Part shown: one piece after another, positions 14,471 to 52,847 of the stretch
How positions within the stretch are numbered: the stretch's first letter is position 1
Layout: every line of letters starts with the position of its first letter
NCBI RefSeq assembly: GCF_003334305.1
Contig: NZ_QOWS01000002.1
Length of the DNA stretch: 64,000 bases
Reading direction: 5' to 3' (one strand)
Source: Escherichia coli
Lineage (GTDB): Bacteria > Pseudomonadota > Gammaproteobacteria > Enterobacterales > Enterobacteriaceae
Position numbers and translations under genes: made by a program
The notes under the pieces: generated by a model
The model's input: only the letters and a program-made list of their open reading frames with translations
What the model was told of the DNA's origin: nothing
Database searches by the model: none

Positions 14471-15460
14471 TTAAACCAGTTCGTTCGGGCAGGTTTCGCC
14501 TTTTTCCAGATTGCTTAAGTTTTGCAGCGTAGTCTGAGAAATACTGGTCAGAGCTTCTGCTGTCAGGAATGCCTGATGCCCGGTAAACAGCACGTTGTGG
14601 CAGGCAGACAGGCGACGGAATACGTCATCCTGAATTACGTCGTTGGATTTATCTTCAAAGAACAGATCGCGTTCGTTCTCATATACGTCCATACCCAACG
14701 AACCAATTTTCTGATTTTTCAGCGCTTCAATTGCCGCCTGAGAATCAATCAATGCACCGCGACTGGTATTGACGATCATCACGCCATTTTTCATCTGATC
14801 GAAGGCGGCTTCGTTCAACAGATGGTAGTTTTCCGGTGTCAGCGGGCAGTGCAGAGAGATAACGTCTGATTCAGAGAACAGGGTTGGCAGATCGACATAC
14901 TCCACACCGAGTTCCAGCGCCGCCGCACTTGGATACGGATCGAACGCCAGCAGACGCATACCAAAACCTTTCAGAATGCGCAGCATCGCCACACCGATTT
15001 TACCGGTACCGATAACGCCTGCCGTTTTGCCATACATAGTAAAGCCGGTCAGACCTTCCAGAGAGAAGTTAGCGTCACGGGTACGCTGATACGCGCGGTG
15101 AATACGGCGGTTCAGCGTCATCATCATACCGATGGCGTGTTCAGCAACGGCCTCTGGATCATAGGCTGGAACACGGACTACTTTCAGCCCCAGTTCTTTT
15201 GCCGCGTCAAGGTCGACGTTATTGAAACCGGCACAGCGCAGGGCGATATATTTAACGCCGTGCTTTTTCAGCTCTTCCAGCACCGGGCGGCTGCCGTCAT
15301 CGTTTACGAAAATACATACCGCTTCGCAGCCATTGGCAGTTTTAGCGGTTTTTTCCGTCAGCAGAAAGTCAAAAAATTCCAGCTCAAAGCCAAAGGACTC
15401 GTTCACCTGTTGCAGGTACTTCTTGTCGTACTGTTTTGTGCTATAAACGGCGAGTTTCAT
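14471..15460 (-). CDS. ldhA: fermentative D-lactate dehydrogenase
   Basis: 329 aa; D-2-hydroxyacid dehydrogenase NAD-binding GVIGTGKIGVAM. Confidence 0.95.
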   Translation of the reverse strand: MKLAVYSTKQYDKKYLQQVNESFGFELEFFDFLLTEKTAKTANGCEAVCIFVNDDGSRPVLEELKKHGVKYIALRCAGFNNVDLDAAKELGLKVVRVPAYDPEAVAEHAIGMMMTLNRRIHRAYQRTRDANFSLEGLTGFTMYGKTAGVIGTGKIGVAMLRILKGFGMRLLAFDPYPSAAALELGVEYVDLPTLFSESDVISLHCPLTPENYHLLNEAAFDQMKNGVMIVNTSRGALIDSQAAIEALKNQKIGSLGMDVYENERDLFFEDKSNDVIQDDVFRRLSACHNVLFTGHQAFLTAEALTSISQTTLQNLSNLEKGETCPNELV

Positions 15461-15667
15461 AAGACTTTCTCCAGTGATGTTGAATCACATTTAAGCTACT
15501 AAAAATATTTTACAAAATTTCAAATATAATTGAAAGCTATGGCGATATTGAAAAATTCATCAACAACTATGCTTAGTGTAGGCGCAACCTTCAACTGAAC
15601 GGTTAAACATGCCACAATACCCGTATTGAATGCTTAATTTTTCGCTAAATCAGGATATTAACTACCC

Positions 15668-18307
15668 ATGCTGGGTAAATATAAAGCCGTTCTCGCGCTG
15701 TTATTACTGATTATTCTTGTGCCGTTGACGCTGCTGATGACGCTCGGGCTGTGGGTTCCCACGCTGGCGGGCATCTGGCTACCGCTCGGGACACGTATTG
15801 CATTAGATGAAAGCCCACGCATTACGCGTAAAGGTTTAATCATTCCCGATCTCCGTTATCTGGTGGGAGATTGTCAGCTTGCGCATATCACCAACGCCAG
15901 CCTTTCACATCCCAGCCGCTGGTTATTGAACGTCGGCATGGTAGAACTTGATTCTGCTTGTCTGGCGAAATTGCCGCAGACGGAGCAATCGCCAGCTGCT
16001 CCAAAAACCCTCGCGCAGTGGCAGTCCATGCTGCCTAACACCTGGATCAATATCGATAAACTGATTTTTTCTCCCTGGCAGGAATGGCAGGGAAAACTCT
16101 CTCTCGCATTAACCTCTGATATCCAGCAACTGCGTTATCAGGGCGAAAAAGTTAAATTTCAAGGCCAGCTGAAAGGGCAACAACTTACAGTCAGCGAACT
16201 GGATGTCGTCGCGTTTGAAAATCAGCCGCCGGTTAAACTGGTGGGGGAATTTACTATGCCGCTCGTGCCGGATGGACTTCCTGTAAGTGGGCATGCTACT
16301 GCGACGTTAAACTTGCCGCAGGAACCGTCACTGGTGGATGCAGAGCTGGACTGGCAGGAAAATAGCGGGCAATTGATTGTGCTGGCACGGGATAACGGCG
16401 ATCCGTTGCTCGATTTGCCGTGGCAAATTACTCGTCAACAATTGACCGTAAGCGATGGTCGCTGGAGCTGGCCGTATGCAGGTTTTCCTTTGAGTGGCCG
16501 ACTGGGTGTCAAAGTCGACAACTGGCAGGCAGGGCTCGAGAACGCTCTGGTCAGCGGGCGACTGAGTGTGCTGACCCAGGGGCAAGCGGGTAAAGGCAAC
16601 GCGGTGCTTAATTTTGGTCCAGGAAAATTAAGCATGGAAAAAAGTCAGATGCCACTGCAACTGACCGGTGAAGCGAAACAGGCGGACCTCATTTTATATG
16701 CCCGCTTACCCGCGCAGCTAAGTGGAAGTCTGACTGACCCAACGCTGGCCTTTGAGCCCGGCGCGTTATTACGTTCGAAGGGAAGAGTCATCGATTCGCT
16801 GGACATCGATGAAATCCGCTGGCCTTTAGCGGGTGTAAAAGTCACCCAACGTGGTGTTGACGGACGTTTGCAGGCCATTTTGCAGGCGCATGAAAATGAA
16901 CTGGGCGATTTCGTGCTGCATATGGATGGGCTGGCGAATGATTTTCTCCCTGACGCTGGCCGCTGGCAGTGGCGCTACTGGGGAAAAGGCAGTTTTACAC
17001 CGATGAATGCCACCTGGGATGTTGCAGGAAAAGGTGAGTGGCATGACAGCACGATTACGCTGACCGATCTCTCCACCGGTTTCGACCAGTTACAATACGG
17101 TACGATGACGGTAGAAAAGCCGCGATTAATTCTCGACAAGCCCGTCGTCTGGGTACGTGACGCACAGCATCCCTCCTTCAGCGGCGCGCTGTCACTGGAC
17201 GCCGGGCAAACGCTGTTCACTGGCGGCAGTGTGTTACCGCCATCAACCTTAAAATTTAGCGTCGATGGGCGCGATCCGACGTATTTCCTCTTTAAAGGCG
17301 ATTTACATGCTGGTGAGATTGGCCCGGTTCGGGTAAATGGTCGCTGGGACGGTATTCGTCTGCGCGGTAACGCCTGGTGGCCAAAACAATCACTGACTGT
17401 ATTCCAGCCGCTGGTGCCACCCGACTGGAAGATGAACTTACGCGATGGTGAACTGTATGCTCAGGTTGCATTTTCTGCTGCGCCTGAACAAGGATTCCGC
17501 GCGGGAGGACACGGCGTGTTGAAAGGCGGTAGTGCCTGGATGCCAGATAATCAGGTTAACGGTGTCGATTTTGTCCTGCCTTTCCGTTTTGCCGATGGAG
17601 CCTGGCATCTGGGGACTCGCGGCCCCGTTACGTTGCGAATTGCCGAAGTGATTAATCTGGTGACAGCGAAAAATATTACGGCTGATTTGCAAGGGCGTTA
17701 TCCGTGGACTGAAGAAGAACCCTTGCTGTTGACTGATGTTAGCGTCGATGTGTTAGGCGGTAACGTACTGATGAAACAATTACGTATGCCGCAACATGAC
17801 CCGGCGCTGTTGCGGCTGAATAATCTCTCATCCAGCGAACTGGTTAGCGCCGTCAATCCGAAACAATTCGCCATGTCCGGGGCATTTAGTGGTGCATTGC
17901 CGTTATGGCTAAACAACGAAAAATGGATAGTGAAAGATGGTTGGCTGGCAAATAGCGGGCCAATGACCTTGCGGCTGGATAAAGACACCGCAGATGCGGT
18001 GGTGAAAGACAATATGACTGCGGGTTCAGCAATTAACTGGTTGCGCTATATGGAAATTAGCCGGTCATCGACAAAAATTAACTTAGATAATCTCGGTTTA
18101 TTAACCATGCAGGCCAACATTACAGGTACCAGTCGCGTTGATGGTAAAAGCGGTACGGTAAACCTTAATTACTATCATGAAGAGAATATTTTTACGCTGT
18201 GGCGCAGTTTACGCTTTGGCGATAATCTCCAGGCATGGTTGGAGCAGAACGCACGTCTGCCGGGAAATGACTGTCCGCAAGGAAAAGAGTGTGAGGAAAA
18301 ACAATGA
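15668..18307 (+). CDS. ydbH: AsmA-like inner-membrane-anchored periplasm-spanning protein
   Basis: 879 aa; N-terminal TM helix then long beta-rich region; stop overlaps ynbE start (ATGA). Confidence 0.9.
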   Translation: MLGKYKAVLALLLLIILVPLTLLMTLGLWVPTLAGIWLPLGTRIALDESPRITRKGLIIPDLRYLVGDCQLAHITNASLSHPSRWLLNVGMVELDSACLAKLPQTEQSPAAPKTLAQWQSMLPNTWINIDKLIFSPWQEWQGKLSLALTSDIQQLRYQGEKVKFQGQLKGQQLTVSELDVVAFENQPPVKLVGEFTMPLVPDGLPVSGHATATLNLPQEPSLVDAELDWQENSGQLIVLARDNGDPLLDLPWQITRQQLTVSDGRWSWPYAGFPLSGRLGVKVDNWQAGLENALVSGRLSVLTQGQAGKGNAVLNFGPGKLSMEKSQMPLQLTGEAKQADLILYARLPAQLSGSLTDPTLAFEPGALLRSKGRVIDSLDIDEIRWPLAGVKVTQRGVDGRLQAILQAHENELGDFVLHMDGLANDFLPDAGRWQWRYWGKGSFTPMNATWDVAGKGEWHDSTITLTDLSTGFDQLQYGTMTVEKPRLILDKPVVWVRDAQHPSFSGALSLDAGQTLFTGGSVLPPSTLKFSVDGRDPTYFLFKGDLHAGEIGPVRVNGRWDGIRLRGNAWWPKQSLTVFQPLVPPDWKMNLRDGELYAQVAFSAAPEQGFRAGGHGVLKGGSAWMPDNQVNGVDFVLPFRFADGAWHLGTRGPVTLRIAEVINLVTAKNITADLQGRYPWTEEEPLLLTDVSVDVLGGNVLMKQLRMPQHDPALLRLNNLSSSELVSAVNPKQFAMSGAFSGALPLWLNNEKWIVKDGWLANSGPMTLRLDKDTADAVVKDNMTAGSAINWLRYMEISRSSTKINLDNLGLLTMQANITGTSRVDGKSGTVNLNYYHEENIFTLWRSLRFGDNLQAWLEQNARLPGNDCPQGKECEEKQ

Positions 18308-18489
18308 AAATTTTACTGGCTGCGTTGACGTCATCTTTTATGCTGGCTGCCTGTACGCCGCGTATTGAAGTCGCTGCGCCCAAGGAACCGATCACTATCA
18401 ATATGAACGTTAAAATTGAGCATGAGATCATCATCAAGGCAGACAAAGATGTCGAAGAGCTGCTTGAAACTCGTAGCGATCTTTTCTGA
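18304..18489 (+). CDS. ynbE: small lipoprotein
   Basis: 61 aa with lipobox LAAC; translationally coupled to ydbH. Confidence 0.8.
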   Translation: MKILLAALTSSFMLAACTPRIEVAAPKEPITINMNVKIEHEIIIKADKDVEELLETRSDLF

Positions 18490-18493
18490 GGCG

Positions 18494-18823
18494 ATGATGA
18501 AGAAAACATTACTTCTTTGTGCGTTTCTTGTTGGGCTGGTAAGCAGCAATGTAATGGCATTGACTCTGGATGAAGCCAGAACTCAGGGGCGGGTAGGTGA
18601 AACATTTTATGGTTATCTGGTTGCGCTGAAAACGGATGCTGAAACAGAGAAATTAGTAACCGACATTAATGCCGAACGTAAAGCGAGTTACCAACAACTG
18701 GCAAAGCAAAATAATGTGTCTGTAGATGATATCGCGAAACTCGCCGGGCAAAAGCTCGTAGCTCGGGCCAAACCGGGGGAATATGTACAAGGGATAAACG
18801 GTAAATGGGTGCGAAAATTTTAA
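18494..18823 (+). CDS. ydbL: DUF1318 periplasmic protein
   Basis: Signal peptide MMKKTLLLCAFLVGLVSSNVMA; starts 4 nt after ynbE stop. Confidence 0.8.
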   Translation: MMKKTLLLCAFLVGLVSSNVMALTLDEARTQGRVGETFYGYLVALKTDAETEKLVTDINAERKASYQQLAKQNNVSVDDIAKLAGQKLVARAKPGEYVQGINGKWVRKF

Positions 18824-18959
18824 TAGCAAAACCGCAATATCGGGATAACGCTACAGGAGAAAGCGATTGATCTATTTTCCTGAAACAAGGTGAATATTCA
18901 AAAACTCCTGTCAAATTGCCTTTCGCCCTGAAAAATGCATAGTCAAATATCTGTTTTAA

Positions 18960-18994
18960 CTAATTGGCGTTGCAGTACACACAACGCCAATTAG
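18960..18994. terminator. perfect 13-bp-stem hairpin abutting feaR stop
   Basis: CTAATTGGCGTTG-cagtacaca-CAACGCCAATTAG; no strong U-tract, so may be a stabiliser/terminator or protein site. Confidence 0.4.
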
Positions 18995-19900
18995 TTAGCG
19001 GAATTTACGTCGATACTCGCCTGGCGTCATCCCAAAGCGTTGCTTAAATACCGTTGAAAAATGACTCTGGTCAGAAAATCCCCAATGAAAGCCGATGCCT
19101 GCCAGTTTTTCATCATCTGCGGCATGGCGAATCGCATCTGCACAAAAATCGAGACGACGGTTACGAATATATTGCGCGACTACCAAACCTTTATCGGCAA
19201 ACATTCGGTACAAACTACGTACTGACATACCTGTCTCTCCGGCTATCCACTCCGGGCGTAATATCTCTTCGCGAATATTATCGTCTATCAACGTAACCAC
19301 TTTTTGAAACTGACGTTCACGACGAGGTTGAACAGATTCCCGCTGATGAAGTACCGGGCGCAGCAGACACACCATCGCCTGTAGCGCAGCTTCACTTTCT
19401 GTTTCAGAAAGTGCCGGATTATTCATGCTCTCCTGTAACAGGCGATGACTGAGTTGCACCATGGGTAAGTCAGCGTCCAGTCTTTCTGCGCAGACAGGTT
19501 TTTGATGGGGAAAATATTGTTCCAGCAGAGTGCGTGGCAAAAGTAATGAAATCTGTTTAGAAGACTCCTGCCAGTAAAGCGAACAGGGGCGTGAGGCATC
19601 GAGTAACGTAATATCGCCAGCGCCAATCTGCACCTGACGCTCATCCTGCTCCATTATTGCCTGACCACTAAGCTGAAAAACGGTGTAAAACCAGGCATCG
19701 TCGCTGCCTTTTACCTCCTGCCAGGTGCGGGATAAATTCACCCCGCTGGTTGTCACGGTACTCAGCTTTAGTCCTTTGGCAAAATGCGTGTCCAGTACAC
19801 CCGTGTAACGCTCAGTCAGCAGGCGTCCGGTAAAATTTCCGCATACCTGATTGATTTGGGAAAGCCATTGCTGAAACTCATTATCCATTGCGGGGTTCAT
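18995..19900 (-). CDS. feaR: AraC-family activator of tynA/feaB
   Basis: 301 aa; C-terminal AraC HTH (IAGETGMSVRSLYRMF...). Confidence 0.9.
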   Translation of the reverse strand: MNPAMDNEFQQWLSQINQVCGNFTGRLLTERYTGVLDTHFAKGLKLSTVTTSGVNLSRTWQEVKGSDDAWFYTVFQLSGQAIMEQDERQVQIGAGDITLLDASRPCSLYWQESSKQISLLLPRTLLEQYFPHQKPVCAERLDADLPMVQLSHRLLQESMNNPALSETESEAALQAMVCLLRPVLHQRESVQPRRERQFQKVVTLIDDNIREEILRPEWIAGETGMSVRSLYRMFADKGLVVAQYIRNRRLDFCADAIRHAADDEKLAGIGFHWGFSDQSHFSTVFKQRFGMTPGEYRRKFR

Positions 19901-51810: not shown

Positions 51811-52054
51811 AGGATATTTAAAGAAAACGCCTGTACTAAAACCGACCCGTGGTACAGGCGAAGAATACGGGTCTACATCGGAAGCGCCTATTATATTTAT
51901 TTGTATGACAAATAAAACCATAATCCTTGCCCATACGTCCATCTGGCTTATTTTTAATCAATTCACCCGATCTTTGATCTCATCAACGGTATCAAAATAA
52001 ACCAGCGTATAACGTTCAAATCGAACATAAGATTCGATAAACCATGGAGGTTAT

Positions 52055-52300: not shown

Positions 52301-52508
<208 letters not shown>

Positions 52509-52847
52509 CGTTGGCCTCGGTTGATAGAAATATCGGTCGGGGCCTTCGTCTTTCTGATTCCCGGTTAGCCTGAAAACAGAAAGTCTCAGGCACCCGCAGG
52601 CATCCTATGAGGTTTCCTTAGGGACGAAAATAATCACTTCACGAAATTGCGTGCTGTTTTCCAGAATTTTTCGTCATTCGGGTTAGCCAGTTTAGCCATT
52701 CGTTACTCTCTTCATTCCAATAGCATTAATTTTCTCTGCAATAATTGTTGTAAAAATGTGACGCAAAGAGGTTTTTGGTCATAAGTAATTACCGTCAAGT
52801 GCCGATGACTTTCTATCAGGAGTAAACCTGGACGAGAGACAACGGTA

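Follow-up and report, generated by a model that had tools for sequence, protein, structure and literature searches.

A stretch of 64,000 nucleotides from Escherichia coli (RefSeq assembly GCF_003334305.1, contig NZ_QOWS01000002.1), referred to below as the window, carries on its plus strand three closely packed genes, ydbH, ynbE and ydbL, and this packing raises the question of whether the three products belong to one envelope system and whether their synthesis is tied together. Direct reading of the open reading frames (ORFs) and their junctions revealed that the three genes lie head to tail (Table 1), and the locus is the usual ydbH-ynbE-ydbL operon of E. coli, very probably a single transcription unit for one of the redundant AsmA-like envelope bridges, of which TamB and YhdP are the other two. 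The sequence-only reading of the locus had proposed an AsmA-like YdbH, a lipoprotein and a secreted DUF1318 protein in one operon, which was borne out by hidden Markov model (HMM) searches, by signal-sequence checks and by published work (PMC11126948). Its proposal of a membrane lipid complex was likewise in agreement with the literature, in which the three products act together in outer-membrane lipid homeostasis (PMC11126948). The description of the small subunits as poorly characterised is outdated, as both have been studied in papers and a crystal structure of YdbL is available (Protein Data Bank (PDB) entry 28oj). Three redundant routes have been proposed to bring phospholipids to the outer membrane of Gram-negative bacteria, and the YdbH system, being one of them, bears on antibiotic permeability.

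The complex, the roles of the small proteins, the gene overlap and the coupling were already known from papers of 2019 to 2026. The present analysis adds incremental points beyond these papers, namely a ydbL start that is probably at 18497, a conserved ynbE-ydbL junction with the Shine-Dalgarno (SD) sequence placed in the stop codon, and the loss of ydbL together with a C-terminal motif of YnbE. Further minor additions are the conservation of the overlap and of the SD-in-stop junction across Enterobacterales, and a conserved promoter-like block and 5' leader upstream of ydbH.

The 3.6-kb region was 100% identical over 3601 nucleotides (nt) to the chromosome of E. coli strain A7 in RefSeq, where ydbH, ynbE and ydbL are annotated at exactly matching coordinates between ldhA and feaR, with ydbL beginning at the first of two ATG codons (4 nt after ynbE). 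Of 5426 complete E. coli genomes, 5410 contained at least 80% of the ldhA-ydbH-ynbE-ydbL region. The 5420 matches among these genomes included five on plasmid-labelled records, and at least one genome held two copies. A natural knock-out could be observed in E. coli SCPM-O-B-7615 (NZ_CP144926.1; locus L087, 4269-5746), where ydbH is cut after 726 nt beside IS1A, ynbE and ydbL are missing from the locus shown, and genes for an isoaspartyl peptidase and a YjbH-domain protein come next; this fits the non-essentiality of the operon when TamB and YhdP are present.

Products of the three genes

The YdbH protein matched NCBIfam NF007971 with 1396.5 bits (cut-off 824) over residues 1-878 and Pfam PF11739 with an E-value of 2.4e-289, and its membership in the YdbH family is solid, while its wider placement among the AsmA-like or repeating-beta-groove proteins rests on the literature. 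An AlphaFold2 (AF2) model built from a 34-sequence alignment (A4; mean predicted local distance difference test (pLDDT) 84.8) predicted two helices, at residues 4-37 and 841-861, with near-unbroken beta-strands between them up to residue 840 and a disordered tail after the second, with one transmembrane helix and no transporter fold. When the model was searched against AFDB50, only YdbH orthologues were found among the matches listed, with template modelling (TM) scores of 0.8-0.9. According to Ruiz et al. 2021 (PMC8593681), lipid homeostasis of the outer membrane requires YhdP, TamB and YdbH as a group, within which they are redundant, and loss of ydbH together with tamB and yhdP caused synthetic lethality and lipid-homeostasis defects in K-12 (PMC8593681). 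In the complete genome of Kluyvera genomosp. 3 (CP022114.1; locus L014, 3194-4492) the ydbH frame was open for only 433 codons before ynbE; the short gene is either frameshifted or pseudogenised, or it reflects a sequencing error.

YnbE matched PF13617 (Lipoprotein_19; Table 1), and its N-terminus could be read as MKILLAALTSSFMLAA-C17-T, a signal peptide with the lipobox L-A-A-C, in which Cys17 (18352-18354) was invariant in alignment A3. Threonine, not aspartate, stands at position +2, which fits outer-membrane sorting by the established Lol avoidance rule. The core PITINMNVKIEHEI was invariant or nearly so in A3, including relatives at 38-51% identity, and so was the strand I30-I38 (18391-18417; ITINMNVKI) with its alternating polar and non-polar residues. 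A C-terminal helix follows at approximately K48-T56 (18445-18471), and the protein ends in SDLF. A second AF2 model, of a single chain joining YdbH 590-879, mature YnbE and mature YdbL through two linkers on a species-paired alignment (A6; pLDDT 78), predicted a beta-strand at YnbE 30-38 (pLDDT approximately 80) and a helix at 44-56 (pLDDT 85) beside a confident YdbL. This predicted secondary structure agrees with the published multimer model, and the partner of the strand is not readable from the fusion model. The NCBIfam scan returned no model for YnbE or YdbL, the weak matches being noise.

The structure prediction that the sequence-only reading had suggested for the complex has been published: AlphaFold-Multimer models of YdbH, YnbE and YdbL, together with in vivo photo-cross-linking, support beta-augmentation between YdbH and YnbE, by which YnbE extends the YdbH beta-groove (Kumar, Davis and Ruiz 2024, PMC11126948). 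Deletions of ynbE and ydbL in a yhdP tamB background, also suggested there, have been reported in the same study, and the two genes parted in the outcome, with ynbE being essential and ydbL dispensable in a tamB background depleted of YhdP (PMC11126948). Proline substitutions in the strand I30-I38 abolished YnbE function, and YnbE was found to multimerise (PMC11126948). The YdbH of Pseudomonas aeruginosa likewise requires the adjacent ynbE (PA5306) for function (PMC12447247).

The older database label of YdbH, 'dicarboxylate transport (DctA-YdbH)', would place the protein outside lipid trafficking, with YnbE and YdbL as unrelated small envelope proteins. Many orthologue entries are still named 'Dicarboxylate transport' and direct lipid-transfer biochemistry is missing; however, the lethality and lipid defects shared with tamB and yhdP (PMC8593681), the YnbE-YdbH cross-links and the proline-disruption phenotypes (PMC11126948) all argue for a lipid function, the single transmembrane helix of the model is not a transporter fold, and in Pfam the family PF11739 now bears the description 'Intermembrane phospholipid transport protein YdbH'. 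The probability of such a non-lipid role is next to negligible.

YdbL carries a signal peptide through Ala21 and is mature from Leu22 (18560), after VMA. The protein matched PF07027 (DUF1318) with an E-value of 3.3e-31, and the DUF1318-conserved residues G31, G39, N58, R61 and W104 were all present. Of the 87 residues of mature YdbL, 86 were shared with PDB entry 28oj ('Probable chaperone-like protein YdbL'), and the 28oj chain, which covers residues 23-109 of the 109-amino-acid (aa) form of YdbL (E-value 3e-52), opens at the same Leu. The structure of YdbL was solved at 2.12 Å by De'Ath et al. 2026, who mapped the interface with the C-terminal helix of YnbE (bioRxiv 10.64898/2026.03.16.712125). 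Extra YdbL was lethal in tamB yhdP cells (PMC11126948), and this lethality was relieved by extra YdbH plus YnbE (bioRxiv 10.64898/2026.03.16.712125). The same preprint reported that free YdbL was degraded by DegP in vitro while YnbE-bound YdbL was spared, and that YdbL was below detection at native levels (bioRxiv 10.64898/2026.03.16.712125).

Gene junctions and translational coupling

Direct reading of the first junction demonstrated that the ydbH stop overlaps the ynbE start in the sequence ATGA, exactly as the sequence-only reading had placed it, with an SD sequence inside the last ydbH codons (Table 1). Conservation of this layout was surveyed with a YnbE-alignment scan using one genome per species, from which the best 80 of at least 569 loci, all from Enterobacterales, were taken; in 76 of the 80, ydbH, ynbE and ydbL occurred in order on one strand. 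Among these 76 species, the 4-nt overlap between ydbH and ynbE was found in 60, a 1-nt overlap in 6, a longer overlap in 7 and a gap of 2-9 nt in 3. Some overlap was thus kept in 73 of 76 species, though the C-terminal residues of YdbH vary, and an SD-like tetramer was located 3-11 nt upstream of the ynbE start in 72. Together with the 5410 E. coli genomes that hold the region, these counts indicate more than a chance arrangement. The 4-nt overlap was also seen in two distant metagenomic loci (L002 and L003).

Huber et al. 2019 included ydbH/ynbE among the five native gene pairs of E. coli that they tested (PMC6728339). With the overlap out of reach of ribosomes, translation of the ynbE reporter was 'extremely low or undetectable', and the SD was 'strictly essential' for reinitiation at ynbE (PMC6728339); a follow-up of 2023 revealed that reinitiation declines with a longer gap (PMC10666635). 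Kumar et al. 2024, who took the organisation of the operon as their starting point, explicitly mentioned the ATGA overlap and translational coupling (PMC11126948). Translational coupling from ydbH to ynbE is therefore experimentally established in reporter constructs (PMC6728339, PMC10666635).

The same junctions could in principle result from mere genome compaction, in which case ynbE and ydbL would be initiated independently at their own SD sequences or from internal promoters, and the overlap would have no regulatory meaning. Each downstream gene does have a good SD of its own, 4-nt overlaps are the commonest overlap class in E. coli (PMC6728339), and bioBF, one of the five pairs of Huber et al., showed no coupling. 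The junction RNA was also not unusually structured, as folds from -99 to +30 at the ydbH/ynbE and ynbE/ydbL junctions were no more stable than shuffled sequences (z of +1.2 and +0.2), so that no sequence-intrinsic block to independent initiation could be reproduced. Such a reading is nevertheless highly improbable in view of the reporter results, with their dependence on ribosomes arriving at the overlap, on the SD and on a short distance, and of the overlap kept in 73 of 76 species despite varying YdbH C-termini. Moreover, the sigma-70 consensus scan was at chance level (4 sites, 4.3 expected), with no site beyond chance upstream of ydbH, ynbE or ydbL.

At the second junction, the ynbE stop codon is fused to an SD-like sequence for ydbL (TGAGG; Table 1). 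The stop codon is followed by GGCG and by two adjacent in-frame ATG codons at 18494 and 18497, and the GAGG (18488-18491) lies 2 nt from the former and 5 nt from the latter. An ATG placed 4 nt past the ynbE stop, corresponding to 18494 in E. coli, occurred in only 10 of the 76 species, while a gap of 7 nt was the commonest (34 of 76) and 65 species had a gap of 5-14 nt. The rarity of the 4-nt ATG, the predominance of the 7-nt gap and the spacing of the SD favour 18497, and the conserved start of ydbL is most likely this codon, with a 108-aa product and a 7-nt gap. The spacing of 4 nt given by the sequence-only reading thus matches the RefSeq annotation, whereas the 76-species comparison favours 18497; the shorter spacing is probably a choice of the NCBI automatic annotation rather than a biological one. 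With either start the junction is tight.

An SD-like motif preceded ydbL in 67 of 76 species, and in 56 of them a GAGG or AGGAG overlapped the ynbE stop. This conserved SD-in-stop design makes coupling from ynbE to ydbL plausible. A helix between AUCAUCAUC in ynbE and GAUGAUGA at the ydbL double ATG, taken from the E. coli fold, was considered as a coupling device and rejected, the upstream ATG of its 3' arm being present in only 10 of 76 species. In a few assemblies, 155-173-aa 'YnbE-YdbL fusion' proteins (P0004-P0007) were found, which carry both Pfam domains and are 97-99% identical to E. coli YdbL; as ynbE and ydbL lie in different frames in the window, these fusions most likely arose from single-base errors in sequencing or assembly.

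Conservation of the triad and loss of ydbL

One of the remaining four loci of the survey (L042) ends just past the ydbL start, which leaves 79 informative loci, and ydbL stood beside ynbE in 76 of them. The other three, from Enterobacter sp. BIGb0383 (L074), Tatumella ptyseos (L079) and Erwinia sp. UBA8792 (L084), contained ydbH and ynbE without a downstream DUF1318 gene (approximately positions 4640-4800 in each locus), and a GC-rich hairpin followed ynbE in the Enterobacter and Erwinia loci. The YnbE proteins of the three ydbL-less loci ended in ...SDLHN, ...LLKNSQ or ...KNGEDAPLRQ and did not carry the (S/N)(D/G)LF motif, while YnbE ended in (S/N)(D/G)(L/V/I)F in 69 of the 76 loci with ydbL. 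These three cases suggest a co-loss of YdbL and its putative binding motif on YnbE, and the fact that three lineages have lost ydbL is in keeping with YdbL being an accessory.

The sequence-only reading had taken the tight spacing to imply stoichiometric co-translation of the three proteins. The coupling of ydbH to ynbE supports the co-translational part of this claim (PMC6728339, PMC10666635), while equal stoichiometry is too strong, as YnbE forms multimers and YdbL can be dispensed with, is toxic in excess and is scarce; coupling gives proportional, not necessarily equimolar, synthesis. In its strictest form, the claim would make YdbL a structural subunit of a fixed 1:1:1 bridge, with the spacing yielding equal amounts of the three proteins. 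The best AlphaFold-Multimer 1:1:1 model does set YdbL against the YdbH C-terminus and YnbE (PMC11126948), and the retention of ydbL beside ynbE in 76 of 79 informative loci is in line with such a bridge. However, deletion of ydbL was without phenotype even when tamB and yhdP were absent, over-production of YdbL was lethal in the tamB yhdP background, YnbE forms multimers, YdbL could not be seen at its native level and is degraded by DegP when free of YnbE, and three lineages keep ydbH-ynbE without ydbL. A fixed 1:1:1 bridge is therefore very unlikely, and YdbL is better described as an accessory, chaperone-like factor.

Distant relatives reached through diverged YdbL proteins retained the triad, with junctions (ydbH/ynbE and ynbE/ydbL) of -4/+9 nt (L002 and L003), +2/+9 nt (L005 and L006) and +9/+9 nt (L089). 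A DUF1318 gene directly followed a YnbE-like gene in 9 of 9 loci of six single-domain DUF1318 representatives, with the Pfam match of the upstream gene on record in 8. In three loci from distant metagenomic or metagenome-assembled-genome lineages (L088, 1555-2210; L091, 3762-4366; L092, 37-641), genes for Lipoprotein_19 and DUF1318 proteins were adjacent with gaps of 32-83 nt, and no YdbH-like gene was found upstream of the pairs within approximately 1.5 kb, approximately 3.8 kb and 36 nt, respectively; the pair of L091 comes after amtB-glnK. Two DUF1318 domains were also observed in single proteins of 219-226 aa (P0250, P0256, P0260 and L093, 1474-2540). Their genes were overlapped by 4 nt by a preceding small ORF (88-129 aa, no Pfam match), a recognisable YnbE-like lipoprotein was not seen there, and these loci may represent a variant system.

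The pairs without an adjacent ydbH-like gene (L088, L091 and L092) and the co-loss of ydbL and the YnbE motif in three lineages point towards a bolder idea, that ynbE and ydbL form an autonomous, co-evolving module and are more than an appendage of ydbH. As its second part, the conserved TGAGG-N4-ATG junction may act as a hard-wired setter of the ratio of YdbL to YnbE synthesis, keeping the former at a fixed fraction of the latter. We regard this idea as rather unlikely in its combined form. If true, such a ratio setter would explain how cells avoid a lethal excess of YdbL.

Working model, flanking elements and related systems

In the model that we favour, the N-terminal helix would anchor YdbH in the inner membrane, from which its continuous hydrophobic beta-groove would reach into the periplasm, and YnbE, lipidated at Cys17, would be sorted to the outer membrane. 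The interaction of YdbH and YnbE and its requirement have been shown in the literature; phospholipids would slide along the groove between the two membranes, a flux that we infer, as we do any number of YnbE copies in a bridge. Secreted YdbL, for which binding to YnbE has also been shown in the literature, would bind the C-terminal helix of YnbE in the periplasm and limit runaway self-association of YnbE, aiding assembly at a low dose and poisoning it at a high dose. The gene layout would serve this dosage. Ribosomes that end ydbH would reinitiate at the overlapping ynbE ATG by means of the SD inside ydbH, a coupling shown in the literature, so that production of YnbE would be confined to the places and times of YdbH production. 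The ydbL gene begins 7 nt later, and the SD fused to the ynbE stop probably ties the synthesis of YdbL to that of YnbE. The identities of the genes, the anatomy of the junctions and their conservation, on which this layout is based, are shown by the present analysis.

Several points weigh against this model. According to the source paper, phospholipid transport by YdbH-YnbE still lacks biochemical proof, and the modelled complex, at approximately 180 Å, is shorter than the periplasm of approximately 250 Å (PMC11126948). A Foldseek search of solved structures with the YdbH model returned generic beta-sheet matches only, with TM-scores of at most 0.21 to ApoB100 and LptD, which did not inform its placement in a superfamily. 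At the level of expression, the coupling of ynbE to ydbL is putative, the junction RNA was no more stable than shuffled sequences, and internal promoters are possible, the consensus scan being at chance level.

Upstream of ydbH, alignment across 12 Enterobacteriaceae genera revealed two near-invariant blocks, AAACATGCCACAATA (approximately 15606-15620) and AAATCAGGATATTAACTACCC, in otherwise diverged intergenic DNA. The first block reads as an extended -10 element (TGcCACAAT) with a weak -35 element and is a candidate promoter of the operon, inferred from its conservation and not called by the consensus scan. Genomic systematic evolution of ligands by exponential enrichment (SELEX) placed a site for the RpoD holoenzyme between ldhA and ydbH, with the unit listed as 'ydbH--ydbL' (PMC3946193); the hexamer pair predicted in that study differs from the candidate promoter, being TTGAAA-15-AAAAAT at approximately 15531-15557 (PMC3946193). 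The second block is the ydbH 5' leader, whose SD-like CAGGA lies unusually far from the ATG (approximately 11 nt). The conservation of the upstream blocks exceeds the need of a ribosome-binding site alone, so that they may be a regulatory target, and the near-invariant leader could be subject to post-transcriptional control.

Downstream, a perfect hairpin of 15 bp was located between the convergent ydbL and feaR genes, and the fold of 18824-19000 was more stable than shuffled sequences (z = -4.2). The hairpin may mark the 3' end or act as a terminator of one of the transcripts or of both; neither strand shows a canonical U-tract, and a terminator role is unproven for this reason. The Rfam scan of 15400-19100 gave no match. 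Elsewhere in the window, five matches above the Rfam gathering threshold correspond to known E. coli small RNAs unrelated to the operon (Table 1).

Table 1. Coordinates of the operon, its junctions, its flanking elements and the Rfam matches in the window
Feature	Position	Strand	Description
ydbH	15668-18307	+	879-aa inner-membrane-anchored AsmA-like/repeating-beta-groove protein; TGA stop 18305-18307; from ORF reading and HMM
ynbE	18304-18489	+	61-aa outer-membrane lipoprotein precursor; stop TGA 18487-18489; PF13617, E-value 3.7e-16
ydbL	18497-18823	+	108-aa precursor, periplasmic DUF1318 chaperone-like protein; alternative annotated start 18494 (109 aa)
SD of ynbE (GAGGA)	18293-18297	+	within last ydbH codons, 7 nt upstream of ATGA; direct reading
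ATGA	18304-18307	+	ynbE start (ATG 18304-18306) overlapping ydbH stop; termination-reinitiation site; direct reading, coupling from PMC6728339 and PMC10666635
TGAGG	18487-18491	+	ynbE stop TGA fused to ydbL SD; direct reading, putative coupling role
Candidate operon promoter	15590-15619	+	weak -35 TTCAAC 15590-15595, 17-nt spacer, TG 15610-15611, -10-like CACAAT 15613-15618; suggested by conservation
ydbH 5' leader and ribosome-binding region AAATCAGGATATTAACTACCC	15647-15667	+	21 nt right before ATG; near-invariant in 12 genera
15-bp perfect hairpin AACTAATTGGCGTTG / CAACGCCAATTAGTT	18958-18996	.	between convergent ydbL and feaR; overlaps feaR stop codon
McaS	1334-1429	-	Rfam match
FnrS	4807-4924	+	Rfam match
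MicC	9735-9855	+	Rfam match
RydC	51821-51884	-	Rfam match
sok antitoxin RNA	52444-52595	-	Rfam match

Among known systems, the YdbH-YnbE-YdbL operon of K-12 is the same operon (PMC11126948; 10.64898/2026.03.16.712125), as it agrees with the present locus in gene order, in the lengths of 879, 61 and 108 aa, in the ATGA overlap, in the lipobox and in the signal peptide. Differences from it are limited to strain-level substitutions, such as Thr for Ala at one position of YdbL, and to the NCBI annotation of the window strain type, which starts ydbL one codon earlier. The translocation and assembly module TamB-TamA resembles YdbH-YnbE in that an AsmA-like beta-groove protein anchored in the inner membrane requires a partner in the outer membrane for a complete envelope bridge, and TamB is redundant with YdbH (PMC8593681). 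The partner of TamB is the Omp85 beta-barrel TamA, whereas that of YdbH is a 44-residue strand-adding lipoprotein, and TamB is much longer. To our knowledge, TamB-TamA has no YdbL-like chaperone. YhdP, the third redundant AsmA-like bridge protein alongside YdbH and TamB, differs from YdbH in that its length is believed to suffice for crossing the periplasm without a partner, by means of its C-terminal hydrophobic helices, and fusion of the YhdP C-terminal region to P. aeruginosa YdbH conferred independence of YnbE (PMC12447247).

The ATGA-overlap pairs hyfH-hyfI and astD-astB (Huber et al. 2019) share with ydbH-ynbE an SD in the upstream gene and a dependence of downstream translation on the upstream ribosome. 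The ynbE-ydbL junction differs from such pairs by its 7-nt gap and by the fusion of the SD to the stop codon, and its coupling is putative. The action of CsgC on CsgA in curli is comparable to that of YdbL on YnbE, an analogy drawn by the YdbL authors, because in both cases a small periplasmic protein restrains amyloid-like beta-strand polymerisation; however, CsgC and YdbL have no sequence or fold relationship, and YdbL binds the C-terminal helix of its client and not an amyloid core. The eukaryotic bridge-like lipid transfer proteins VPS13, ATG2 and BLTP1 are also counted among the closest known systems.

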